From Escherichia phage HMD-9, in sequence record PV287714.1: a stretch of 64,000 nucleotides of DNA, one strand, 5' to 3'. The translations under genes and the position numbers were made by a program. Every line of letters begins with the position of its first letter. Positions within the stretch are counted from its first letter, which is position 1. A model generated the notes under the pieces. The model did not search any database. It was given only the letters and a program-made list of their open reading frames with translations, and was not told the DNA's origin. Shown here one piece after another: positions 308-54,777 of the stretch.

Positions 308-1873
308 ATGACTATCAAAACTAAAGCTGAACTTTTGAACAAATGGAAGCCATTACTGGAAGGTGAAGGTTTACCGGAAATTGCTAATAGCAAACAAGCG
401 ATTATCGCTAAAATCTTTGAAAACCAGGAAAAAGATTTCCAGACAGCTCCAGAGTACAAAGACGAAAAAATCGCTCAGGCGTTCGGTTCTTTCTTAACAG
501 AAGCTGAAATCGGTGGTGACCACGGTTACAATGCTACTAACATCGCTGCAGGTCAGACTTCTGGCGCAGTAACTCAGATTGGCCCAGCTGTTATGGGTAT
601 GGTACGTCGTGCTATTCCTAACCTGATTGCTTTCGACATTTGCGGTGTTCAGCCGATGAACAGCCCGACTGGCCAGGTATTCGCACTGCGCGCAGTATAC
701 GGTAAAGACCCGGTCGCTTCCGGTGCTAAAGAAGCATTCCACCCAATGTATGGTCCAGATGCAATGTTCTCTGGTCAGGGTGCTGCTAAGAAATTCGCTG
801 CTTTGAAAGCAAGTGATACTCTTGAAGTTGGAACTATTTACACCCACTTCTTCCAGGACACTGGTACTGTGTATCTGCAAGCTACAGAAGTTAAGCAAAT
901 TGATACTAGTGCAACTGACGCAGCTAAATTAGATGCTGAAATTAAGAAACAAATGGAAGCTGGTGTACTGGTAGAAATCGCTGAAGGTATGGCTACTTCT
1001 GTCGCTGAACTTCAGGAAAGTTTCAACGGTTCTACCGATAACCCATGGAATGAAATGGGCTTCCGTATCGATAAACAAGTTATCGAAGCTAAATCTCGCC
1101 AGCTGAAAGCTGCTTACTCTATCGAATTAGCACAAGACCTCCGCGCTGTTCACGGTATGGATGCTGATGCTGAACTGTCTGGTATTCTGGCTACAGAAAT
1201 CATGCTGGAAATTAACCGTGAAGTTGTTGATTGGATTAACTACTCAGCTCAGGTTGGTAAATCTGGTATGACCCTGACTCCGGGTTCTAAAGCTGGTGTA
1301 TTTGACTTCCAGGATCCGATTGATATTCGTGGTGCTCGCTGGGCGGGTGAATCCTTTAAAGCTCTGTTGTTCCAGATTGACAAAGAAGCAGTTGAAATTG
1401 CTCGTCAGACTGGTCGTGGTGAAGGTAACTTCATTATCGCTTCCCGTAACGTAGTTAACGTTCTGGCTTCAGTTGATACCGGCATTTCTTATGCTGCACA
1501 GGGTCTGGCTACCGGCTTTAACACTGATACTACCAAGTCAGTATTTGCTGGTGTTCTGGGTGGTAAATACCGTGTATATATCGACCAGTATGCTAAACAG
1601 GATTATTTCACTGTAGGTTATAAAGGTCCGAACGAAATGGATGCTGGTATTTACTATGCTCCATATGTAGCTCTGACTCCGCTGCGTGGTTCCGATCCGA
1701 AGAACTTCCAACCAGTAATGGGATTCAAAACTCGTTACGGTATCGGTATCAACCCATTTGCAGAATCCGCTGCTCAGGCTCCGGCTTCTCGCATCCAGAG
1801 CGGTATGCCTTCTATTCTGAATAGCCTTGGTAAAAACGCTTACTTCCGCCGTGTATATGTTAAAGGTATCTAA
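308..1873 (+). CDS. 23: major capsid protein gp23
   Basis: 521 aa; sequence recognised as T4 gp23 (MTIKTKAELLNKWKPLLEGEG...). Confidence 0.97.
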   Translation: MTIKTKAELLNKWKPLLEGEGLPEIANSKQAIIAKIFENQEKDFQTAPEYKDEKIAQAFGSFLTEAEIGGDHGYNATNIAAGQTSGAVTQIGPAVMGMVRRAIPNLIAFDICGVQPMNSPTGQVFALRAVYGKDPVASGAKEAFHPMYGPDAMFSGQGAAKKFAALKASDTLEVGTIYTHFFQDTGTVYLQATEVKQIDTSATDAAKLDAEIKKQMEAGVLVEIAEGMATSVAELQESFNGSTDNPWNEMGFRIDKQVIEAKSRQLKAAYSIELAQDLRAVHGMDADAELSGILATEIMLEINREVVDWINYSAQVGKSGMTLTPGSKAGVFDFQDPIDIRGARWAGESFKALLFQIDKEAVEIARQTGRGEGNFIIASRNVVNVLASVDTGISYAAQGLATGFNTDTTKSVFAGVLGGKYRVYIDQYAKQDYFTVGYKGPNEMDAGIYYAPYVALTPLRGSDPKNFQPVMGFKTRYGIGINPFAESAAQAPASRIQSGMPSILNSLGKNAYFRRVYVKGI

Positions 1874-1888
1874 TCTTTGACGATTTAA

Positions 1889-1917
1889 GGGACCTTCGGG
1901 TCCCTTTAGTTGTTTTT
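1889..1917 (+). terminator. rho-independent terminator after gene 23
   Basis: GGGACC-TTCG-GGTCCC hairpin followed by T-rich tract. Confidence 0.6.
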
Positions 1918-1921
1918 ATGG

Positions 1922-1929
1922 TATAAATA
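1922..1929 (+). promoter_or_regulatory. late promoter for gene 24
   Basis: TATAAATA about 28 nt upstream of gene 24 ATG, SD AAAGGAAAG. Confidence 0.55.
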
Positions 1930-1956
1930 AATCATATAAACTGAAAGGAAAGCGCA

Positions 1957-3240
1957 ATGGCTAAAATCAACGAACTTTTGCGCGAATCAACCACAACGAA
2001 TAGCAACTCAATCGGTCGCCCAAATCTCGTTGCTTTGACTCGCGCTACCACTAAATTAATATATTCTGACATTGTAGCAACGCAAAGAACTAATCAACCT
2101 GTTGCTGCTTTTTATGGTATCAAATACCTTAACCCAGATAATGAATTTACATTTAAAACTGGTGCTACTTACGCTGGCGAAGCTGGGTACGTAGATCGAG
2201 AACAAATCACAGAATTAACAGAAGAGTCTAAATTAACTCTCAATAAAGGCGATTTATTCAAATATAATAATATCGTTTATAAAGTATTAGAAGATACACC
2301 ATTTGCTACCATTGAAGAAAGCGATTTAGAATTAGCTCTTCAGATTGCAATTGTTCTTTTAAAGGTTCGTCTATTTTCTGATGCTGCAGTAACAAGCAAA
2401 TTTGAAAACTCTGATAGCGAAATTGCGGATGCTAGATTCCAGATTAATAAATGGCAAACCGCAGTTAAATCTCGTAAACTTAAAACTGGCATTACGGTTG
2501 AATTAGCACAAGATTTAGAAGCAAATGGATTCGATGCTCCTAATTTCTTAGAAGATTTGCTTGCAACTGAAATGGCGGATGAAATCAATAAAGATATTCT
2601 GCAGTCTTTGATTACAGTGTCAAAACGCTATAAAGTTACAGGAATTACTGATACTGGATTCATCGATTTGAGTTATGCATCTGCTCCTGAAGCTGGTCGT
2701 TCATTATACCGAATGGTATGTGAAATGGTTTCGCATATCCAAAAAGAATCAACTTATACAGCAACGTTCTGTGTTGCTTCTGCTCGTGCCGCTGCGATTC
2801 TTGCTGCATCAGGTTGGTTAAAACATAAACCAGAAGATGACAAATATCTTTCACAAAATGCCTACGGGTTATTAGCTAATGGTTTACCGCTTTATTGCGA
2901 TACCAACAGCCCATTAGATTATGTAATCGTTGGCGTAGTAGAAAATATCGGTGAAAAAGAAATTGTTGGATCAATTTTCTATGCTCCGTATACAGAAGGT
3001 CTTGACTTAGATGACCCTGAACATGTAGGTGCATTTAAAGTTGTAGTTGATCCAGAAAGCTTACAACCATCTATCGGTTTATTGGTTAGATATGCTTTAT
3101 CTGCAAATCCTTACACTGTAGCAAAAGATGAAAAAGAAGCAAGAGTAATTGATGGTGGAGACATGGATAAAATGGCGGGTCGTTCAGATTTGTCTGTTTT
3201 ATTAGGTGTTAAACTACCAAAAATTATCGTTGATGAATAA
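1957..3240 (+). CDS. 24: head vertex protein gp24
   Basis: 427 aa, gp23 paralogue, position after 23. Confidence 0.95.
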   Translation: MAKINELLRESTTTNSNSIGRPNLVALTRATTKLIYSDIVATQRTNQPVAAFYGIKYLNPDNEFTFKTGATYAGEAGYVDREQITELTEESKLTLNKGDLFKYNNIVYKVLEDTPFATIEESDLELALQIAIVLLKVRLFSDAAVTSKFENSDSEIADARFQINKWQTAVKSRKLKTGITVELAQDLEANGFDAPNFLEDLLATEMADEINKDILQSLITVSKRYKVTGITDTGFIDLSYASAPEAGRSLYRMVCEMVSHIQKESTYTATFCVASARAAAILAASGWLKHKPEDDKYLSQNAYGLLANGLPLYCDTNSPLDYVIVGVVENIGEKEIVGSIFYAPYTEGLDLDDPEHVGAFKVVVDPESLQPSIGLLVRYALSANPYTVAKDEKEARVIDGGDMDKMAGRSDLSVLLGVKLPKIIVDE

Positions 3241-3245
3241 AACAA

Positions 3246-3263
3246 AGGGACCAAAAGGTCCCT
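3246..3263. terminator. bidirectional terminator hairpin between 24 (+) and rnlB (-)
   Basis: AGGGACC-AAAA-GGTCCCT flanked by A-run and T-run. Confidence 0.55.
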
Positions 3264-3269
3264 TTTTAT

Positions 3270-4274
3270 TTAACTTACCAATTCAATCCAAGTCGGACGA
3301 AGTACATCTTGTACCATTTTAACTAATTCCTTTTTAATCAAAGAAGGATTATCCGCTTGAGTTAGAGTAATACCTTCACGAGAAGTTTCTTCCAAAATAT
3401 CTTGAACAGTTAGCCCCATCACCTTTCCAAAATCTTTTGGACCAATTTCGCCAATTTTAGAAATAACATTATTTACTCGGTTCAGTGTAACGTAGCAAGC
3501 TAAAATTCCCAGCAATTTATTATCAGCTTCTGACAACTCAACTTTAGCTTTAATAGGCTTATCAGACTTTTTCTTTTCGCTAAATTTAGAGTTCTTGCAT
3601 TTAATAGCGACACGATTGCCATTAGGCATCCAAGAAGGATAACAAGGTTTCAATACATATCCTTCAGCAGTAAATACTTCGCCTTTTGCTTCGGCATTCC
3701 AAACGCATTTATTTGCATCAACTAATCCAGCATGGTCTACTGTAAAATTATAATCCTGGACGACAGAATCTAAATCATTTGGCAATTTAATAAGTTCTTC
3801 AAATTTACCGCGACCTAAAAGTGGAGCCATTTTAAATTTAAATGTATTACAGAATGATTCCATCATATAATCATCGACATAAGTCACATCACCACTTTCC
3901 GTAGTAACAATAATGTCAAATACATAAAAATCTTTATCGCCATAATCGACATTCTTCTGAATGCCAGGTCCAGCGAATTCGCCAAAAACTTGATAAGATA
4001 CAACTGCTGAAGTTTCCATAATATCTTGCACTGCTTTAATGGAATCAGCGTAATTCTTTAAAATAATTTCATACCCAAAGAAATCTTCAGCAGGAAGAAT
4101 CGGTCCAGTACGTTTAGCACAAGTTGCTTTATCGCGTTCAATAATCAGTGAGAAATTTGTGCCATGAATCTTTTCACGAGCTACCCATTCGCCGCCAGTC
4201 AATCCTAAACTGTAAAGTTTTTCAATGAATTTAGAATTGTAATGATTTTCAAGACTGCTATACTTTTTAAACAT
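3270..4274 (-). CDS. rnlB: RNA ligase 2
   Basis: 334 aa; nucleotidyltransferase lysine motif KIHGTN; T4 position after 24. Confidence 0.93.
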
Positions 4275-4283
4275 AATTAATCC

Positions 4284-4562
4284 TCAAAATGTAATTTCTA
4301 ACCAATCACCATCACGCTGATCACTATTGACTTTAAAGCTAAATCCTTCTTTTCTCAGCCAATCACCAATTTCTTCAGTAATCAATTTATCGCGAGCGAT
4401 ACAATAATAACTAAAATATGTTTTACCTTGTTCAGCTGCTTTATTGGCAAGTTCCGAAAAATCTTTAATAAAACACTCTAGCTTAAACTGTTTACTTTTT
4501 AATGCTTTTTCGCGTAGTTGATTAGCAAAAGATTCATTTTCATAAAGATCATACTGTTCCAT
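4284..4562 (-). CDS. hypothetical protein (T4 24.2 position)
   Basis: 92 aa ORF, tightly packed in operon. Confidence 0.7.
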   Translation of the reverse strand: MEQYDLYENESFANQLREKALKSKQFKLECFIKDFSELANKAAEQGKTYFSYYCIARDKLITEEIGDWLRKEGFSFKVNSDQRDGDWLEITF

Positions 4563-37542: not shown

Positions 37543-37854
37543 TTACACCGCCATTTTTCCTTTAATAGGAGGGTGTGATTCGTAACCTTTAAGAACGAAA
37601 TCTTTAGGCCTGAGTTTAAGAATGTATTCCAATTGTTCTTTAGTAGAAAGATAACGGAATTTATAAGGCAATCCGCCTATTACCAGTTCACAAAGCTCTT
37701 TAGGTTCACGACGCAAAATTTCTTTACATTGTTCTACGTGATTCATATAGATATGAGTATTACCGCCAGAAAATATCAAATCTCCTGGAATAAGATTACA
37801 CATCTTAGCTACAATATGAACCAACGCAGCATATGATGCAATGTTGAATGGAAG
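37543..37854 (-). CDS. td: thymidylate synthase, exon 2
   Basis: Encodes LPFNIASYAALVH...; joins exon 1 to give 286 aa; the track's leading M is the intron 3' ATG. Confidence 0.93.
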   Translation of the reverse strand, partial: LPFNIASYAALVHIVAKMCNLIPGDLIFSGGNTHIYMNHVEQCKEILRREPKELCELVIGGLPYKFRYLSTKEQLEYILKLRPKDFVLKGYESHPPIKGKMAV

Positions 37855-38108
37855 CATTATGTTCAGATAAGGTCGTTAATCTTATCCCGGAATTATATCC
37901 AGCTGCATGTCACCATACAGATCAGACTATATCTCCATCTTGATGAAGCAAGATGTCTATCGTTTCGAGTCACTTGACCCTACTCCCCAAAGGGATAGTC
38001 GTTAGGCATTTAGTTCAAAAGAACATTTAGCACGGGATTGTCTACTAGAGAGGTTCCCCGTTTAGATAGATTACAAGTATAAGTCACCTTATACTCAGGC
38101 CTCAATTA
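37855..38108 (-). ncRNA. group I self-splicing intron in td, ORF-less (no I-TevI)
   Basis: 5' end TAATTGAGGCCTGAGTATAAGGTGACTTATAC..., 3' end ...CTGAACATAATG; exon 1 ends in U, intron ends in G; 254 nt, no ORF. Confidence 0.9.
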
Positions 38109-38657
38109 ACCCAAGAAAACATCTACACTTCTTTGGTACCATTGTAAATCAAGATAACCATTACGCACATTAAACTGATAGAACATATGACAGGGCGGTA
38201 ATGCCATTTGATTGATTTCAGCTGGATTCCATGCTGAAACGATTTGACGTCGATCAGTTGGTAATTTTTTAATACGATCAATAGTTTCAACTAATTGATC
38301 CACACCACCGAAATCACGCCATTGTTTACCGTATATAGGACCAAGTTCACCACTATGATATCCTAGGTCTTTAGCCTGGTTTTCATAGTTATCGTCCCAA
38401 ATAGTTTTACCTTGAATAAGACTACCATGAGTGCGAAGACGTAAATCATTAACATTGGTAGAACCGGAAATAAACCATAGAAGCTCAGCAATGCAAGCTT
38501 TCCAAGCGAGCTTCTTAGTCGTTACTGCAGGAAAACCTTTAGTTAAATCCCAGCGTAATTTAGTACCGAACAAAGCAATTGTTCCTGTGCCTGTTCGGTC
38601 ATCGGTTTCATAGCCATTTTCAAAAATGTCTTTAATTAAATCTTGGTATTGTTTCAT
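38109..38657 (-). CDS. td: thymidylate synthase, exon 1
   Basis: 183 codons ending QRSVDVFLG; the track's stop is the first 3 nt of the intron. Confidence 0.93.
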
Positions 38658-44275: not shown

Positions 44276-47200
44276 ATGGCCGAGATTAAAAGAAAGTTCA
44301 GAGCAGAAGATGGTCTGGACGCAGGTGGCGATAAAATAATCAACGTAGCTTTAGCTGATCGTACCGTAGGAACTGACGGTGTCAACGTTGATTACTTAAT
44401 TCAAGAAAACACAGTTCAACAATACGATCCAACTCGTGGATATTTAAAAGATTTTGTAATCATTTATGATAACCGCTTTTGGGCTGCTATAAATGATATT
44501 CCAAAACCAGCAGGAGCTTTTAATAGCGTACGCTGGAGAGCATTACGTACTGATGCTAATTGGACAACTGTTTCATCAGGACCTTATCAATTAAAGTCAG
44601 GCGAATCAATTTCAGTTGATACTGCAGCCGGTAATGACATTACATTTACTTTACCATCTTCCCCAATTGATGGAGATACTATCGTTCTCCAAGACATTGG
44701 AGGAAAACCTGGAGTTAACCAAGTTTTAATTGTAGCTCCAGTACAAAGTATTGTAAACTTTAGAGGCGAACAAGTACGTTCAGTACTAATGACTCATCCA
44801 AAATCGCAGATAGTTTTAATTTTTAGTAATCGTCTGTGGCAAATGTATGTAGCTGATTATAGCAGAGAAGCTGCAGTTGTAACACCGGCAAGTCTTTATC
44901 AGGCGCAATCTAACGATTTTATCGTGCGTAGATTTACTTCCGCTGCGCCGATTAATATTAAACTTCCGAGATTTGCTAATCATGGCGATATTATTAATTT
45001 CGTCGATTTAGATAAACTAAATCCGCTTTATCATACAATTGTTACTACATACGATGAAACGACTTCAATACAAGAAGTTGGAACTCATTCCATTGAAGGC
45101 CGTACAACGATTGACGGTTTCTTGATGTATGATGATAATGAAAAATTATGGAGACTGTTTGACGGGGATAGTAAAGCACGTTTACGTATTATAACGACTA
45201 ATTCAAACATTCGCCCAAATGAAGAAGTTATGGTATTTGGAGCGAATAACGGAACAACCCAAACAATTGAACTTCAGCTTCCAACTGATATTTCTATTGG
45301 TGATACTGTTAAAATTTCCATGAATTACATGAGAAAAGGCCAAACAGTTAAAATCAAAGCTGCTGGTGAAGATAAAATTGCTTCTTCAGTTCAATTGCTG
45401 CAATTCCCAAAACGTTCAGAGTATCCGCCTGAAACTAAATGGGTGACTGTTCAAGAATTAGTTTTTAACGGCGAAACTAATTATGTTCCAGTTTTACAGC
45501 TTGCTTATATAGAAGATTCTGATGGAAAATACTGGGTTGTACAACAAAACGTTCCAACTGTAGAAAGAGTTGATTCTTTAAATGATTCTACTAGAGCAAG
45601 ATTAGGCGTAATAGCTTTAGCTACACAAGCTCAAGCAAATGCTGATTTAGAAAATTCTCCGCAAAAAGAATTAGCAATTACACCAGAAACATTAGCTAAC
45701 CGTACTGCTACAGAAACTCGTAGAGGTATCGCAAGAATAGCAACTACTGCTCAAGTGAATCAGAACACCACATTCTCTTTTGCTGATGATATTATCATCA
45801 CTCCTAAAAAGCTGAATGAAAGAACTGCCACAGAAACTCGTAGAGGCGTTGCTGAAATTGCTACGCAGCAGGAAACTAATGCAGGTACTGATGATACTAC
45901 AATCATCACTCCTAAAAAGCTTCAAGCTAGACAAGGTTCTGAATCATTATCTGGTATTGTAACCTTTGTATCTACCGCAGGAGCTACTCCAGCTTCTAGT
46001 CGTGAATTAAATGGTACAAACGTTTATAATAAAAACACTAATAATTTAGTTGTTTCGCCTAAAGCTTTGGATCAGTATAAAGCTACTCCAACCCAACAAG
46101 GTGCAGTAATTTTAGCAGTTGAAAGTGAAGTAATTGCTGGACAAAGCCAAGAAGGATGGGCAAATGCGGTTGTAACGCCAGAAACGTTACATAAAAAGAC
46201 ATCAACTGATGGAAGAATTGGTTTAATTGAAATTGCTACGCAAAGTGAAGTTAATACTGGAACTGATTATACTCGTGCAGTCACTCCTAAAACTTTAAAT
46301 GATCGTAAAGCAACTGAAAGTTTAAGTGGTATAGCTGAAATTGCTACACAAGTTGAATTCGACGCAGGCGTCGACGATACTCGTATCTCTACACCATTAA
46401 AAATTAAAACTAGATTTAATAGTACTGATCGTACTTCTGTTGTTGCTCTATCTGGATTAGTTGAATCAGGAACTCTCTGGGACCATTATACCCTTAATAT
46501 TCTTGAAGCAAATGAGACACAGCGTGGTACACTTCGCGTAGCTACACAAGTTGAAGCTGCTGCAGGAAAATTAGATAATGTTTTAATAACTCCTAAAAAG
46601 CTTTTAGGTACTAAATCTACTGAAGCACAGGAAGGTGTTATTAAAGTTGCAACCCAGTCTGAAACTGTGACTGGAACATCAGCAAATACTGCTGTATCTC
46701 CAAAAAATTTAAAGTGGATTGTGCAGAGTGAACCTACCTGGGCAGCTACTACTGCGGTAAGAGGTTTTGTTAAAACTTCATCTGGTTCAATTACGTTCGT
46801 TGGTAATGATACGGTAGGTTCAACACAGCCATTAGAATCATATGAGAAAAATAGCTATGCGGTATCACCATATGAATTAAACCGTGTATTAGCAAATTAT
46901 TTGCCGTTAAAAGCAAAAGCTGCTGATACAAATTTATTGGATGGTCTAGATTCATCTCAGTTCATTCGTAGGGATATTGCACAGACGGTTAATGGTTCAC
47001 TAACCTTAACCCAGCAAACGAATCTGAGTGCCCCTCTTGTATCATCTAGTACTGGTGAATTTGGTGGTTCTTTAGCTGCTAATAGAACATTTACCATCCG
47101 TAATACCGGACTCCCGACCAATATCATTTTCGAAAAAGGTCCTGCAACCGGTTCAAACCCGGTTCAGTCAATGAGCATCCGTGTATGGGGTAACCAGTAT

Positions 47201-48145
47201 GGCGGCGGCTCGGATACGACTCGTTCTACCGTATTTGAAGTTGGTGATGAAACGTCTAATCACTTTTATTCTCAACGTAATAAAGACGGGAATATAACGT
47301 TTAGCATTAATGGTACTGTGATGCCAAAAAATGTAACTGCTTCGGGTATGTTGAATGTGAATGGCGCTGCAGCATTCGGTAGTTCAGTTAATGTAACCGG
47401 CGAAATTATTTCCAGAAATACAAACGCTTTCCGCGCTATCAGTAGCCAATACGGGTTCTTTATTCGTAATGATAGCTCTAATGTCTATTTTATGCTGACC
47501 GATCAAGGCGATCAGACTGGTGGATATAATGCATTACGTCCTTTAACCATTAATAATGCATCTGGTCAAGTAACGATTGGTGAAAGCTTAATTATTGCCA
47601 AAGGTGCAACTATTAACTCAGGTGGTTTAACTGTTAACTCGAGAATTCGTTCTCAAGGCACTAAAACATCTAATTTATATACTCGTGCACCAACATCTGA
47701 TACTGTAGGATTCTGGTCAATCGATGTTAATGATTCAGCTACTTATAACCAGTTCCCAGGTTATTTTAAAATGGTTGAAAAAACTAATGAAGTGACTGGG
47801 CTTCCATACTTAGAACGTGGCGAAGAAGTTAAATCTCCTGGTACACTGACTCAGTTTGGTAATACACTTGATTCGCTTTACCAAGATTGGATTACTTATC
47901 CAACGACGCCAGAAGCGCGTACCACTCGCTGGACCCGTACATGGCAGAAAACCAAAAACTCTTGGTCAAGTTTTGTTCAGGTATTTGATGGAGGTAACCC
48001 TCCTCAGCCATCTGATATCGGTGCTTTACCATCTGATAATGCTATAATGGGGAATCTTACTATTCGTGATTTCTTACGAATTGGTAATGTTCGCATTGTT
48101 CCTGACCCAGTGAATAAATCTGTTAAATTTGAATGGATTGAATAA
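44276..48145 (+). CDS. 34: long tail fibre proximal subunit gp34
   Basis: 1289 aa with internal ~40-aa fibre repeats. Confidence 0.95.
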   Translation: MAEIKRKFRAEDGLDAGGDKIINVALADRTVGTDGVNVDYLIQENTVQQYDPTRGYLKDFVIIYDNRFWAAINDIPKPAGAFNSVRWRALRTDANWTTVSSGPYQLKSGESISVDTAAGNDITFTLPSSPIDGDTIVLQDIGGKPGVNQVLIVAPVQSIVNFRGEQVRSVLMTHPKSQIVLIFSNRLWQMYVADYSREAAVVTPASLYQAQSNDFIVRRFTSAAPINIKLPRFANHGDIINFVDLDKLNPLYHTIVTTYDETTSIQEVGTHSIEGRTTIDGFLMYDDNEKLWRLFDGDSKARLRIITTNSNIRPNEEVMVFGANNGTTQTIELQLPTDISIGDTVKISMNYMRKGQTVKIKAAGEDKIASSVQLLQFPKRSEYPPETKWVTVQELVFNGETNYVPVLQLAYIEDSDGKYWVVQQNVPTVERVDSLNDSTRARLGVIALATQAQANADLENSPQKELAITPETLANRTATETRRGIARIATTAQVNQNTTFSFADDIIITPKKLNERTATETRRGVAEIATQQETNAGTDDTTIITPKKLQARQGSESLSGIVTFVSTAGATPASSRELNGTNVYNKNTNNLVVSPKALDQYKATPTQQGAVILAVESEVIAGQSQEGWANAVVTPETLHKKTSTDGRIGLIEIATQSEVNTGTDYTRAVTPKTLNDRKATESLSGIAEIATQVEFDAGVDDTRISTPLKIKTRFNSTDRTSVVALSGLVESGTLWDHYTLNILEANETQRGTLRVATQVEAAAGKLDNVLITPKKLLGTKSTEAQEGVIKVATQSETVTGTSANTAVSPKNLKWIVQSEPTWAATTAVRGFVKTSSGSITFVGNDTVGSTQPLESYEKNSYAVSPYELNRVLANYLPLKAKAADTNLLDGLDSSQFIRRDIAQTVNGSLTLTQQTNLSAPLVSSSTGEFGGSLAANRTFTIRNTGLPTNIIFEKGPATGSNPVQSMSIRVWGNQYGGGSDTTRSTVFEVGDETSNHFYSQRNKDGNITFSINGTVMPKNVTASGMLNVNGAAAFGSSVNVTGEIISRNTNAFRAISSQYGFFIRNDSSNVYFMLTDQGDQTGGYNALRPLTINNASGQVTIGESLIIAKGATINSGGLTVNSRIRSQGTKTSNLYTRAPTSDTVGFWSIDVNDSATYNQFPGYFKMVEKTNEVTGLPYLERGEEVKSPGTLTQFGNTLDSLYQDWITYPTTPEARTTRWTRTWQKTKNSWSSFVQVFDGGNPPQPSDIGALPSDNAIMGNLTIRDFLRIGNVRIVPDPVNKSVKFEWIE

Positions 48146-48153
48146 GAGGTATT

Positions 48154-49269
48154 ATGGAAAAATTTATGGCAGAGTTTGGACAAGGATATGTCCAAACGCC
48201 ATTTTTATCGGAAAGTAATTCAGTAAGATACAAAATAAGCATAGCGGGTTCTTGCCCGCTTTCTACAGCAGGACCATACGTTAAATTTCAGGATAATCCT
48301 ATCGGAAATCAAACATTTAGCGCAGGCCTTCATTTAAGAGTTTTTGACCCTTCAACAGGAGCATTAGTTGATAGTAAGTCATATGCTTTTTCGACTTCAA
48401 ATGATACTACATCAGCTGCTTTTGTCAGTTTCATGAATTCTTTTTCAAACAACAGACTTGTTGCTATATTAACCAGTGGAAAGGTTAATTTTCCTCCTGA
48501 AGTGGTATCTTGGTTAAGGGGAGCAGGAACGTCTGCTTTTCCATCAGATTCAGTATTGTCAAGATTTGACGTATCATATGCTGCTTTTTACACTTCTTCT
48601 AAAAGAGCTATTGCATTAGAACATGTTAAACTGAGTAATAGAAAAAGCACAGATGACTATCAAACTATTTTAGATGTTGTATTTGACAGTTTAGAAGACG
48701 TTGGAGCTACGGGATTTCCTAAAAGAACATATGAAAGCGTTGAGCAATTTATGTCAGCGGTTGGCGGAACCAATAACGAAATTGCGCGATTGCCAACTTC
48801 AGCTGCTATAAGTAAACTCTCTGATTATAATTTAATTCCTGGCGATGTTCTTTATCTTAAAGCTCAGTTATATGCCGATGCAGATTTACTTGCGCTTGGA
48901 ACTACAAATATATCTATCCGTTTTTATAATGCATCGAATGGATATATTTCCTCTACCCAAGCTGAGTTTACTGGACAAGCTGGGTCTTGGGAATTAAAGG
49001 AAGATTATGTAGTTGTTCCTGAAAATGCAGTCGGATTTACTATATATGCGCAGAGAACTGCTCAAGCTGGTCAAGGCGGAATGAGGAATTTAAGCTTTTC
49101 TGAAGTATCAAGAAATGGCGGCATTTCAAAACCTGCCGAATTTGGCGTCAACGGTATTCGCGTTAATTATGTCTGTGAATCGGCTTCACCTCCAGATATA
49201 ATGGTACTTCCTACACAAGCCTCTTCTAAAACTGGCAAAGTGTTTGGGCAAGAATTTAGAGAAGTTTAA
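48154..49269 (+). CDS. 35: long tail fibre hinge gp35
   Basis: 371 aa, position. Confidence 0.9.
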   Translation: MEKFMAEFGQGYVQTPFLSESNSVRYKISIAGSCPLSTAGPYVKFQDNPIGNQTFSAGLHLRVFDPSTGALVDSKSYAFSTSNDTTSAAFVSFMNSFSNNRLVAILTSGKVNFPPEVVSWLRGAGTSAFPSDSVLSRFDVSYAAFYTSSKRAIALEHVKLSNRKSTDDYQTILDVVFDSLEDVGATGFPKRTYESVEQFMSAVGGTNNEIARLPTSAAISKLSDYNLIPGDVLYLKAQLYADADLLALGTTNISIRFYNASNGYISSTQAEFTGQAGSWELKEDYVVVPENAVGFTIYAQRTAQAGQGGMRNLSFSEVSRNGGISKPAEFGVNGIRVNYVCESASPPDIMVLPTQASSKTGKVFGQEFREV

Positions 49270-49331: not shown

Positions 49332-50021
49332 ATGGCTGATTTAAAAGTAGGTTCAACTGTGGGTGGATCTGTCATTTGGCATCAAGGAAATTTTCCATTG
49401 AATTCAGCCGGTGACGATGTACTCTATAAATCATTTAAAATATATTCAGAATATAATAAACCGCAGGCAGCTGATAACGATTTCGTTTCTAAAGCTAATG
49501 GTGGCACAAAGTCTCAAGGTTTCCAAAAAGAAGTAGAATTTAAAGAAGGCGTTAAGATTTCTGCAACGTTTTCTGGAGGTTCAGACCTGAATGGGTTATA
49601 TTCTGGCAATGGAGATGGAGCTTCCAGAGAAAAAGCTAACATGGATTTACGTTCATGGTACGGCATTGGTATTTGGAACACATGCACAAGTGATGGGATA
49701 CAGGGACGCACAATCTGGTTTAATGCCAGGAGTGGTAAAGTTGAAACAGTTGGCAATATTGTTTCTGGCCAACAAGTTATTTCTAATGCTTCAGGACCGA
49801 CCGCCCCGGCACACTTAACTCGCAAAGATTATGTTGATGGAGCAATAAATATTGTTACAGCAAACGCAAACTCTAGGGTATTACGCTCTGGAGATACTAT
49901 GACAGGAAATTTAACTGCGCCAAACCTTTTTTCACAGAATCCTGCATCTCAACCCTCACATGTTCCACGATTTGATCAAATTGTTATTAAGGATTCTGTT
50001 CAAGATTTCGGCTATTATTAA
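49332..50021 (+). CDS. 36: long tail fibre distal subunit gp36
   Basis: 229 aa, position. Confidence 0.88.
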   Translation: MADLKVGSTVGGSVIWHQGNFPLNSAGDDVLYKSFKIYSEYNKPQAADNDFVSKANGGTKSQGFQKEVEFKEGVKISATFSGGSDLNGLYSGNGDGASREKANMDLRSWYGIGIWNTCTSDGIQGRTIWFNARSGKVETVGNIVSGQQVISNASGPTAPAHLTRKDYVDGAINIVTANANSRVLRSGDTMTGNLTAPNLFSQNPASQPSHVPRFDQIVIKDSVQDFGYY

Positions 50022-50029
50022 GAGGACTT

Positions 50030-53000
50030 ATGGCTACTTTAAAACAAATACAATTTAAAAGAAGCAAAACTGCAGGAGCACGTCCTGCCGCTTCAGTATT
50101 AGCCGAAGGTGAATTGGCTATAAACTTAAAAGACCGTGTACTTTTTACTAAAGACGATCAAGGGAATATCATTGATCTGGGTTTTGCTAAGGGCGGTAGT
50201 ATTGACGGGAATGTTATTCATAACGGTAACTACAACCAGACTGGCGATTACACTATAACCGGAGCTATTTCACAAAAGTCTGGACATTTTACTACTACCG
50301 GTAGTATAACAGCAACCGGTGATGTCACAGCAAAATCTCGCCTAATGACTGATATAGGCGAAGTTTTGGTACGTAGTAATGGTACCGCACATGTTCGATT
50401 CCAGGATTTGGCTGATGGACGCGAAAGAGCTATAATTTATTCTCAAAACCGTACTGGGAATACCAAGCAAATATTGAACGTTCGTGTTCAGGATTACACT
50501 AATTCAACATCTAATACTTTTGCATTCAACGGTGACGGTTTATTTTATGCCCCATCTATTTCCGGCGGAACATCAGTAAAATCTCCAGTAATTTATACCA
50601 ATACTGTTAATACAGACAGTAAGAATATTGGCGATTACGATATATCTTCATTAGCAAATAACACTCCATTGGCAGAAAGCGAAACGGCTATTAACCACCT
50701 CCGTGTTATGCGAAATGCTGTAGGATCTGGTATATTCCATGAAGTTAAAGATAATGATGGAATAACTTGGTATACCGGAGATGGCTTAGACACTTATCTT
50801 TGGTCGTTTACCTGGTCTGGTGGATTGAAAGCGGGTCATTCTATTTCTGTTGGTACTCCTGGTGGCAATAAAGGATACTCTGAATTAGGGACTGCTTCAA
50901 TTTCTCTTGGTGATAATGATACCGGGCTAAAATGGCATCAGGATGGATATTTCCAAACAGTAAACAACGGGACAAGAACTTTCACCTATGGCCCTACCGA
51001 AACACAAAGCCTTAGAAAAATGGTTATGGGTTATTCTCCGGACGGGATTCTTATGACAACGCCGCCGACAGAAAACTATGCATTAGCCACTGTTGTTACT
51101 TATCATGATAATAACGCGTATGGTGACGGTCAGACTCTTTTAGGATATTATCAAGGCGGTAATTATCATCACTATTTCCGCGGTAAGGGTACCACAAACA
51201 TTAATACTCATGGCGGTTTGTTAGTTACTCCAGGTGATATTAATGTTATCGGTGGTTCGGTTAATATCGATGGTATAAATAATTCTTCTACCCTGCTATT
51301 TAGAGGCAACACGACCGGAGCTAGTTCAGTTGATAATATGACAATTTCCGTTTGGGGCAATACGTTTACTAATCCTAGTGTAGGTAATCGTAAAAACGTC
51401 ATGGAAATTTCTGATGCAACTAGCTGGATGAGCTATATTCAAAGACTTACAACTGGTGAAGTAGAAATGAACGTTAACGGTTCATTTGAATCATCTGGTG
51501 TTACTGCTGGACATAGAGGAGTTCACACAACAGGCGAAATTTCATCCGGAGCAGTGAATGCGCTTCGCATTTGGAATGCAGATTATGGAGTCATTTTCCG
51601 TCGTTCAGAAAACAGTCTTCATATTATTCCGACTGCTTACGGTGAAGGTAAAAATGGAAATATCGGTCCACTTCGCCCGTTCCGTATGGACCTTGATACA
51701 GGTAAAGTAAGTATTCCTAATATGGATACTACTAATTTGATTATGAACCCAAATGGTTCTATTAAATTTACTGGTCATGGTAATGGTACCGAGCTGTATG
51801 GTAATCAGTATGGGCAAGCGGCACCGATTTATCAAGAAATTAATAATGATTCCGCTTCTGCTTATATTCCAATTATAAAACAGAAATACTTAAATGGCGG
51901 TATAATGTGGTCTATGGGAACAGAACTTAATTCCGGTGATTTTGTAATCCATAGAATTAATGCCGCCGGTGATGAAAACCGAATTATTAAATTTGATAGT
52001 AACTGCGTTCCGCATTTCCCGGATAACGTGCTGGTTGGCGGTGATATTAACATGAAAGGCGCGATGACTTTTGACGCCGGACGTTTAGGATCACGAGATT
52101 ATTTTAAATTTAACCATTGGGGTGATAGTAATAATGCTCGTGATAACATCATCCAGTTAGAAGATAGTCAAGGCGCTCATTTTTCCACTGAACGTACTTT
52201 AGCGACTGGTGCAATTAAAACTCGTTTCTTTGGCGAAACATTTACTGATGGTACATTATACCTAAATCAGATGAATAATAGCTCTGAACGATTCTCTATC
52301 AGAAATTGGGGAAATTCAGAAGTTGGTCGCGCGGCAGTGATGGAAGTCGGTGATTCCAAAGGTTATCACTTCTATACGGAACGCAGGACAGATAATAGTT
52401 TGGCGTTTGATGTTGCTGGCGTTTTTACCGTGCATGGACCTACCGGGATCACTATCAAAAACTCTGCTGGTGCACGACATATCTGGTTTAGAGATGATAG
52501 CGATGCAGAAAAGTCTGTTATCTGGGCTACAGATGAGGGTATTTTACATATTCGCAATAACTATGGTGGAGCAGTTGCACATCGCTTCCAGGGCGCGATG
52601 TTTAAACTTAACGGACGTGTTCCTTATGCCGCAGATCAAGGAATTATTCGTGGTGAGGTTTCTGGCGGTGCTTATGTGGATTGGAGAAATCGCCCTGCTG
52701 GTTTGTTGCTTGACTGTCAACAAAGCGTTGATAGTGCTCATGCCATTTGGAAAGCGGTTGATTGGGGGCGTAACTACATCGCTGCTTTGGATGTTCATAT
52801 GCCAGGTAATAGTAATAATACTGCAGCAGCGATTCTCCATGTTCAAGATGCTAATTATCAATTCCATGCAAGTGGAGAATTTCATGCCACTGGTAACGGA
52901 AGCTTTAACGATGTTTATATTCGATCAGACCGTCGCCTCAAAGAAAACATCGAAGATTATATAGGAAATGCAACTGATTTAATCGGTAAACTGAAAGTTA

Positions 53001-53278
53001 AAACCTACGATAAAGTTAAATCATTATCCGACCGTGAAATTATCGGTCATGAGATTGGCATTATCGCACAGGATTTACAAGAAATATTACCAGAAGCGAT
53101 TAATATTTCGAAAATTGGCAATCTTGATAAACCAGACGAAGTTCTGACAATTTCTAACTCTGCTGTGAATGCTCTTTTAATTAAGGCCATTCAGGAAATG
53201 AGTGAAGAAATTAAAGAATTGAAAACGCCTTTCTTCACTAAAATTGCTCGCAAAATTGGTAAATACTTTAAATTCTAA
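50030..53278 (+). CDS. 37: long tail fibre distal subunit gp37 with C-terminal chaperone-like extension
   Basis: 1082 aa; last ~117 aa begin [10 protein letters not shown]. Confidence 0.92.
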
Positions 53279-53310
53279 TAACAAGGGGCATTGCCCCTTT
53301 GGAGATAATT

Positions 53311-54090
53311 ATGTCAGTAGTTGGTGTTCCTGGTTGGATTGGTAGTTCATCCGTAAATGAAACAGGACAACGATGGATGAGTCAAGCGGCTGGTCAATTA
53401 AGATTAGGTGTTCCTTGCTGGATGAGTCAATTTGCAGGTCGCTCAAGAGAAATTATTCACACACTTGGAGCAGACCATAACTTCAATGGTCAATGGTTCC
53501 GAGATAGATGTTTTGAGGCAGGTAGTACACCTATAGTGTTTAATATCACTGGAGATTTAGTATCATATTCTAAAGATGTTCCTTTATTCTTCATGTACGG
53601 AGATACACCGAATGAATATGTTCAGTTGAATATACATGGCGTAACGATGTATGGTCGTGGCGGGAATGGCGGTAGCAATAGTCCCGGATCGGCTGGGGGT
53701 CATTGTATTCAAAATGATATTGGTGGAAGACTAAGAATTAATAATGGCGGAGCTATTGCAGGCGGCGGTGGCGGTGGCGGCGGCGGTAACTACGGTAGAC
53801 TATCATTTGGTGGTGGTGGTGGTCGCCCATTCGGTGCTGGCGGGTCTTCCTCTCATATGGGTGCTGGTGCAACCGCTGGCACCATTTCCGCTCCGGGTGC
53901 AGGATCTGTCGGTGAGGGGTCTCTTTGGGTATATACAGGCGGGAATGGCGGTGAAGTTGGCTCAGCAGGAGGTAGATGTAATATTCATGGGAACGGTACA
54001 GAATATAACGGTGGTGCTGCTGGTTATGCCGTCATAGGGTCTACACCGACATGGCAAAACGTTGGAGCAATATATGGTCCAAGAGTATAA
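53311..54090 (+). CDS. 38: T2-type tail fibre adhesin gp38 (glycine-rich motifs)
   Basis: 259 aa from MSVVGVPGW; poly-Gly runs; track start 53299 is non-ATG. Confidence 0.88.
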
Positions 54091-54120: not shown

Positions 54121-54777
54121 ATGGCAGCACCTAGAATATCATTTTCGCCCTCTGATATTCTATTTGGTGTTCTAGATCGCTTGTTCAAAGATAACGCTAC
54201 CGGGAAGGTTCTTGCTTCCCGAGTAGCTGTCGTAATTCTTTTGTTTATAATGGCGATTGTTTGGTATAGGGGAGATAGTTTCTTTGAGTACTATAAGCAA
54301 TCAAAGTATGAAACATACAGTGAAATTATTGAAAAGGAAAGAAATGCACGCTTTGAATCTGTCGCCCTGGAACAACTCCAGATAGTTCATATATCATCTG
54401 AGGCAGACTTTAGTGCGGTGTATTCTTTCCGCCCTAAAAACTTAAACTATTTTGTTGATATTATAGCATATGAAGGAAAATTACCTTCAACAATAAGCGA
54501 AAAATCACTTGGAGGATATCCTGTTGATAAAACTATGGATGAATATACAGTTCATTTAAATGGACGTCATTATTATTCCGACTCAAAATTTGCTTTTTTA
54601 CCAACTAAAAAGCCTACTCCCGAAATAAATTACATGTACAGTTGTCCATATTTCAATTTGGATAATATCTATGCTGGAACAATAACCATGTACTGGTATA
54701 GAAATGATCATATAAGTAATGACCGCCTTGAATCAATATGTTCCCAGGCGGCCAGAATATTAGGAAGGGCTAAATAA
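54121..54777 (+). CDS. t: holin T
   Basis: 218 aa; recognised as T4 holin; single TMD then large C-terminal domain. Confidence 0.95.
   Translation: MAAPRISFSPSDILFGVLDRLFKDNATGKVLASRVAVVILLFIMAIVWYRGDSFFEYYKQSKYETYSEIIEKERNARFESVALEQLQIVHISSEADFSAVYSFRPKNLNYFVDIIAYEGKLPSTISEKSLGGYPVDKTMDEYTVHLNGRHYYSDSKFAFLPTKKPTPEINYMYSCPYFNLDNIYAGTITMYWYRNDHISNDRLESICSQAARILGRAK

Follow-up and report, generated by a model that had tools for sequence, protein, structure and literature searches.

Within the 64,000-nucleotide stretch of the Escherichia phage HMD-9 genome analysed here (sequence record PV287714.1; hereafter, the window), a long tail fibre distal subunit, gp37, is followed directly by a gp38 adhesin, and the locus raises the question of whether the C-terminal end of gp37 belongs to the finished fibre or is a folding aid that is shed before gp38 is attached. 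A first-pass annotation had suggested that gp37 ends in an extension of about 117 residues resembling the auto-cleaving intramolecular chaperones of other phage fibres and of endosialidases. Here we follow up that suggestion with profile searches, alignments and structure prediction.

Several precedents frame the question. In T2 and T6, gp37 is described as being cleaved at its C-terminus and then capped by gp38 (Drexler, Riede & Henning, 1986, as cited in Trojet 2011, PMC3157838), an account, at least as relayed in that later source, with which the C-terminal processing of T2-type gp37 invoked by the first-pass annotation is in line. For Salmonella phage S16, the last 113 residues of gp37 are said to be autocleaved after trimerisation at DLNVS^SDRRIKK, between the two serines, and loss of this chaperone is said to expose the surface on which the N-terminal domain of gp38 docks through conserved tryptophans (Dunne et al., 2018, as relayed by PMC7917993 and PMC7289586). 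For the Gp37 of the fPS phages, autocleavage after DVYIR has been predicted within DVYIR^SDGRLKI, with gp38 docking at the resulting face (PMC7917993); a similar inference exists for Yersinia phage fD1. More broadly, S16, T5, K1F and phi29 have been grouped as fibres or spikes with auto-removed C-terminal chaperones (PMC7289586). For S16 gp37, T5 pb1 and K1F, autocatalytic release of the domain and a need for it in trimer folding have both been reported.

From the evidence set out below, we conclude that residues 966-1082 of gp37 are a Peptidase_S74 intramolecular chaperone domain, which very probably aids trimerisation, cuts itself off and frees the docking face for gp38.

Gene 37 and its neighbours

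Gene 37 occupies positions 50030..53278 on the + strand of the window and, on the evidence of its open reading frame and homology, encodes the long tail fibre distal subunit as a precursor of 1082 aa plus stop, the length that the first-pass annotation had given. PHROG 1699 ('long tail fiber protein distal subunit') covers the protein from end to end and the gp37 of Salmonella phage SG1 matches it over its full length at 80% identity. The unbroken 1082-aa reading frame and the end-to-end homology to SG1 gp37 rule out a non-coding region or a frame artefact.

The last sense codon lies at 53273-53275 and the stop codon at 53276-53278. As the serine of the SDRRLK motif is residue 966 and the last codon ends at 53275, the C-terminal extension (S966–F1082, nucleotides 52925–53275, 13.2 kDa, computed by script) is exactly 117 aa long, so that the earlier approximate figure proves to be precise. 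The earlier range of 52924-53275 was right at its end and one nucleotide early at its start, since 52924 is the third base of the codon for Arg965. The predicted mature gp37 (50030..52924, + strand) would comprise residues 1-965, with a mass of 104.7 kDa and the terminal sequence ...FNDVYIR.

The surrounding long-tail-fibre block reads, on the + strand, gp34 (44276..48145), gp35 (48154..49269), gp36 (49332..50021), gp37, gp38 and a holin-sized ORF (54121..54777). Many Escherichia Tequatrovirus genomes match larger parts of the window at 94-97% identity. Gene 38, which encodes a T6-like tail-fibre adhesin, lies at 53311..54090 (+ strand); the reading frame is listed from 53299, but its most likely start is the ATG at 53311, with GGAG upstream at 53301-53304, giving a protein of 259 aa. 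This protein matches the Pfam families GP38 (5.2e-69) and Gp38_N (1.3e-18) and shows 87% identity to T6 gp38 and 53% to T2 gp38, while its residues W9, W22 and W37 are invariant in a four-way alignment. Thus, an adhesin with N-terminal attachment and glycine-rich specificity domains sits directly downstream of gene 37, as is characteristic of T2/T6-type tips.

Between the gene 37 stop codon and the gene 38 ribosome-binding site, a G+C-rich hairpin (AAGGGGC-ATT-GCCCCTT, 53283..53299, + strand) folds as RNA with −12.9 kcal/mol (z −2.05). A hairpin occurs at the same place in T2, with a different sequence, and in SG1, where it is near-identical. We rejected it as an intrinsic terminator: there is no T-run behind it and a terminator scan calls none.

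The extension as a member of Peptidase_S74

When full-length gp37 was compared with Pfam, PF13884 (Peptidase_S74) matched residues 966-1023 (E 1.6e-13, 51.1 bits), starting exactly at Ser966; the 117-residue piece on its own gave 56.1 bits (E 4.5e-15). With a curated gathering cut-off of 22 bits for this profile, of which positions 1-56 of 58 are covered, the match is far beyond chance, and the profile search that had been proposed as a check on the chaperone reading thus returned a clear match. This Peptidase_S74 core (52925..53098, + strand) contains the conserved G-I-I-A-Q-D...L-P-E-A motif, for which S16 gp37 and MyRF also give an alignment. Searched against PHROGs, the 117 residues matched more than 25 tail-fibre families, in every case at the extreme C-terminal end of the profile; in gp37, a long tail fibre distal subunit, the domain likewise forms the very end of the chain, the location typical of the family.

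Comparisons with proteins of known structure point the same way. A phmmer search of PDB sequences recovered the S16 gp37 crystallisation construct 6F45_A, with SDRRLKENI aligned to SDRRIKKDI, and a profile built from the window sequence and its homologues matched 6F45 (6e-17), the tail fibre 8JOV, the MyRF ICA domain 7DC3 and the GA-1 chaperone 3GUD. The deposited chain 3GUD_A, the GA-1 neck-appendage chaperone, opens with SDERHK, aligned to S966. Together with the conserved serine and lysine described below, PF13884 and the profile matches to 6F45, 3GUD and 7DC3 bear out the likeness to intramolecular chaperones that had been noticed from the sequence.

Predicted cleavage junction and catalytic residues

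In alignments of 15-16 homologues, with identities as low as 31%, no change is seen at K971 and N973 and almost none at S966, D967 and L970; within the GxIAQ...LPEA motif, G1010, A1013, Q1014 and A1023 are invariant and I1012, L1020 and E1022 nearly invariant. The junction VYIR|SD.RLK.N is invariant across the gp37 proteins of T2, T6, SG1 and the window. By analogy with the family, Ser966 (codon tca, 52925..52927, + strand) is the predicted nucleophile and would be the first residue of the released fragment, Lys971 (codon aaa, 52940..52942, + strand; alignment column K21), at Ser+5, is the predicted general base, and the predicted scissile bond is Arg965|Ser966.

A counterpart whose mechanism, shared with K1F, has been described is T5 pb1, in which cleavage falls between Thr1263 and Ser1264, Ser1264 is activated by Lys1269, the serine leaves with the chaperone and the mutation S1264A blocks cleavage; a residue from a neighbouring chain ties cleavage to correct folding of the trimer (PMC4690869). 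That folding sensor, Arg1250, is contributed by the neighbouring subunit and lies 14 residues before the serine (PMC4690869). In gp37, by simple counting along the chain, position −14 from Ser966 is His952 and the nearest arginine is R965 at P1, so the T5 sensor cannot be mapped onto gp37 by counting.

Predicted structure

An AlphaFold model of residues 951-1082 was obtained as a monomer from an alignment without the T2 sequence (model residue n corresponds to gp37 residue 950+n). The mean pLDDT was 79, with 84-93 in the core. The predicted elements comprise a short helix (981-986), a beta-hairpin (990-996/1004-1011), a helix (1013-1019), a second hairpin (1024-1030/1035-1041) and a long C-terminal helix (residues 1043-1079, AlphaFold element H93-129; 53156..53266, + strand). 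The model thus has the fold of the family, in which a long helix comes after an alpha/beta 'tentacle' region. Of the tail that had been described as helical, the long C-terminal helix is retained, but the domain as a whole is modelled as mixed alpha/beta ending in that helix, not as simply helical. On the basis of the T5 and K1F chaperone architecture, the long helix should be the part of the chaperone that forms a trimeric coiled coil.

Structure comparison of the model gave a value of 9.8 for the MyRF ICA domain (7DC3), 6.5 for the T5 L-shaped fibre with its chaperone (4UW8), 5.9 for the GA-1 neck-appendage chaperone (3GUD) and 5.7 for the K1F endosialidase chaperone (3GW6).

Distribution and mosaic structure of the domain

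When a large protein database was searched with the 117 residues, there were 50 candidates, from which 23 proteins were returned, all of them short or partial and none a full-length gp37. These were used only for the alignment, and the distribution was therefore taken from tblastn against phage genomes, which recovered the domain from 1192 phage records. Salmonella phage SG1 has all 117 residues unchanged (100% identity), and identity is 99% or more in seven records; T2 gp37 is also among the matches, at 38.7% identity (E 2e-11). The domain is a mosaic, its N-terminal half being SG1-type and its last ~60 residues, including the tail, T6-type, so that 'T6-like' suits the locus better than 'T2-like'. 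The tblastn match to T2, the shared junction and the T6-type tail together identify the extension as a homologue of the removable segment in which the T2/T6 gp37 precursor ends.

The last 17 residues (1066-1082; 53225..53275, + strand) form a T6-type basic amphipathic tail, modelled with low pLDDT. The last 26 residues of gp37 match the T6 tail at ~92%, and a 26-residue query ending in the tail matches 224 phage records, including T6, RB33, PST and KEP10; T2 and several other homologues lack the tail, and the S16 alignment does not show it. The tail has a hydrophobic moment of 0.72-0.75, a value reached by 0.7% of shuffles, and a net charge of +5.

It is conceivable, if very improbable, that the released 13-kDa fragment uses this tail in a second role, either to keep the fibre at the inner membrane while it folds or to pass the exposed end of gp37 to the matching attachment domain of gp38. 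Trojet et al. linked subtypes of the gp37 C-terminus to subtypes of the gp38 N-terminus (PMC3157838). Such a handover, if true, could account for the linkage, provided that the subtypes were defined on the uncleaved protein, in which case the gp37 segment linked to gp38 subtypes would be missing from the mature fibre. Physical linkage is the simpler explanation, as the segments encoding the gp37 C-terminus and the gp38 N-terminus are ~35 nt apart.

Proposed maturation of the fibre tip

The maturation proposed here is drawn from the homologues of S16, T2, T5, K1F and GA-1, and the architecture assumed is that of T5 and K1F, with a central trimeric coiled coil and hairpin tentacles placed round the fibre tip (PMC4690869). 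The chaperone domains would align three nascent gp37 chains, their C-terminal helices forming a trimeric coiled coil, while the beta-hairpin 'tentacles' would clasp the distal end of the fibre, from which nucleus the trimeric beta-structure would fold. Once the trimer had folded correctly, Ser966, activated by Lys971, would attack the Arg965-Ser966 bond in each chain, and the 13-kDa fragments would be released and would be absent from the virion. The exposed face of gp37, ending in ...DVYIR, would then bind one gp38 adhesin at its N-terminal attachment domain of three helices.

Three other readings were weighed against autocleavage and release. In the first, the S74-like domain would only help folding and the extension would be cut by a separate host or phage protease. 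The occurrence of His952 at the counted position of the T5 sensor arginine is compatible with this, as is the history of the subject: the classical T2 work established the processing (via PMC3157838), and in the passages of that literature dealing with it, identification of a protease was not found. Against it, distant homologues keep the serine and the Lys(+5), the aligned serine is the very first residue of the 3GUD chain, a Ser-to-Ala change in T5 is enough by itself to abolish cleavage of the recombinant protein (PMC4690869) and the S16 gp37 chaperone is described as autocleaved (PMC7917993; PMC7289586). Because the dyad is conserved and recombinant homologues process themselves, we regard a separate protease as highly unlikely.

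The second reading accepts the domain and keeps it in the virion as a part of the fibre tip, with gp38 binding either to it or next to it. In its favour one could take the basic amphipathic tail of T6 type, which has been assigned no role, but the catalytic residues of gp37 are intact, T2/T6 gp37 is reported in the account relayed by PMC3157838 to be cleaved before it is capped, and in S16, according to PMC7917993, the chaperone has to be lost before the surface on which gp38 docks is exposed. Retention of the extension therefore seems to us extremely unlikely.

The third reading, under which the Peptidase_S74 match would mark gp37 as a capsule depolymerase, that is, an endosialidase-like enzyme, has a precedent in the phiC120 genome paper, which reads the Pfam match in its own gp37 as a 'novel putative depolymerase', but we reject it as having next to no chance of being right, as PF13884 (Pfam description, 'Chaperone of endosialidase') models the chaperone domain of endosialidases and not their glycosidase domain, only two Pfam families match gp37 (Peptidase_S74 and Gp34_trimer) with no glycosidase or lyase domain found by Pfam, and in fold it is the chaperone parts of K1F, GA-1 and T5 that match, T5 being without known enzymatic activity. 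The phiC120 'depolymerase' is, for the same reason concerning PF13884, a misreading.

On the preferred reading, in which the chaperone cuts itself off, the mature fibre subunit is to be taken as residues 1-965, which bears on the design of chimeric fibres, gp38 swaps, virion proteomics and recombinant gp37-gp38 tips. The assignment also helps to avoid a mistake that recurs in annotation, the labelling of the S74 match in gp37 as 'depolymerase' or 'peptidase'. To the understanding of tail-fibre assembly it adds nothing new: the chaperone domain and the cleavage scheme are ordinary, having already been described in S16, T2/T6 and T5, and the same sequence has already been deposited for SG1.

Comparison with known systems

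Among the closest known systems are T2 and T6, whose gp37 shares the VYIR|SD.RLK.N junction with the window and for which cleavage followed by capping with gp38 has been described. The domains themselves differ: that of T2 is only 37-39% identical to the domain in the window and its predicted fragment is shorter, at 99 aa, whereas T6 differs in the N-terminal half of the domain, which in the window is SG1-type. The size of the T2 fragment was reportedly estimated in the 1986 work of Drexler at about 120 residues, a figure that the prediction may not match.

S16 gp37 resembles the window protein in being a T-even-type long tail fibre distal subunit with a C-terminal segment of similar length (the last 113 residues, against 117), a fragment that starts with SDRR(I/L)K and a downstream gp38 polyglycine adhesin; for both, a sequence of trimerisation, autocleavage and exposure of the gp38 docking face has been proposed. 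Unlike the window protein, which has arginine before the serine (DVYIR|S), S16 has serine there (DLNVS|S), and the fibre sequence ahead of the site is unrelated save for its last few residues, as in the fPS phages. Identity between the S16 domain (PDB construct 6F45) and that of the window is modest.

The Gp37 proteins of the Yersinia Tequatrovirus phages fPS-2, -65 and -90 share with the window the predicted mature end DVYIR, followed by SD.RLK, and differ in having SDGRLKI where the window has SDRRLKE; the fPS site is likewise a prediction.

More distantly, K1F (3GW6), GA-1 (3GUD) and T5 pb1 (4UW8) have in common with the window the Pfam family, the Ser...Lys(+5) pair, a C-terminal position on a trimeric fibre or spike and the predicted fold. 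In contrast, they show 11-18% identity to it in structural alignments, the domain of the window is smaller than that of K1F and its client is a T-even fibre shaft, not a triple beta-helix stalk or a bullet-shaped domain. The MyRF ICA domain (7DC3) departs furthest in its setting, as it belongs to a eukaryotic membrane-bound transcription factor and its cleavage frees that factor, whereas the domain at the end of gp37 would serve the maturation of a fibre.

Mosaic structure of gp37

Comparison of g37, the gene for the distal subunit of the long tail fibre (window 50030–53278, plus strand), with positions 1094–4354 of the Salmonella phage SG1 sequence (L002) showed that gp37 is a mosaic. Near-identical stretches (residues 1–60, ~330–470, ~665–830 and 890–1082) are interspersed with regions of strong divergence (residues ~60–240, 480–500 and 560–660), a pattern typical of T-even fibre genes, in which modules are shuffled. 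In addition, gp37 contains a Gp34_trimer-like segment by Pfam (residues 452–551, E-value 4.5e-8).

The C-terminal chaperone domain, a member of the Peptidase_S74 family, is itself mosaic, with an N-terminal half of SG1 type and a C-terminal half of T6 type. Its final 17 residues (1066–1082; window 53225–53275, plus strand) form a strongly amphipathic tail with a charge of +5, preceded by a proline. A 26-residue query ending in this tail matched 224 T-even phage records, including T6, RB33, PST and KEP10, whereas T2 and other homologues lack the basic tail and end instead in an acidic, coiled-coil-like one.

The S74 match in the homologous gp37 of phage phiC120 (ORF 94) has been described as a ‘novel putative depolymerase’ (PMC8022965), and SG1 record MF001354 annotates the gp38 adhesin adjoining gp37 as ‘tail protein and peptidase’. 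The ‘depolymerase’ and ‘peptidase’ labels both look like annotation errors originating in the family name.

The g37–g38 junction

Mechanical ORF calling begins g38, the adjacent T6-like adhesin gene, at a TTG codon (53299, plus strand). Translation almost certainly begins instead at the ATG at 53311 (plus strand, product MSVVGVPGW...). A Shine-Dalgarno sequence, GGAG, lies upstream of this codon (53301–53304, plus strand), and the resulting N-terminus aligns with the annotated gp38 starts of T2 and SG1 (MAIVGVP/MAVVGVP).

Between the g37 stop codon and this Shine-Dalgarno sequence lies a G+C-rich hairpin, AAGGGGC-ATT-GCCCCTT (53283–53299, plus strand), with a predicted folding energy of −12.9 kcal/mol (z-score −2.05). 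As no T-run follows the stem on its 3′ side, it looks unlikely to be an intrinsic terminator; it may stabilise the mRNA 3′ end or modulate g38 translation. SG1 carries nearly the same hairpin, while T2 has one of different sequence, AGAGGGC-TTCG-GCCCTCT, at the equivalent site.

Group I intron

On the minus strand, Rfam identified a group I intron at 37903–38118 (RF00028, 72.7 bits, E-value 1.6e-16), located between ORFs 38106–38657 and 37543–37857 (both minus strand). The intron appears to interrupt a split gene, taken from position and sequence to be that for thymidylate synthase (td). The two exon ORFs are only ~250 nt apart and the gap contains no ORF, so the intron apparently lacks a homing-endonuclease gene. 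The td intron of T4 is ~1 kb long and bears I-TevI.
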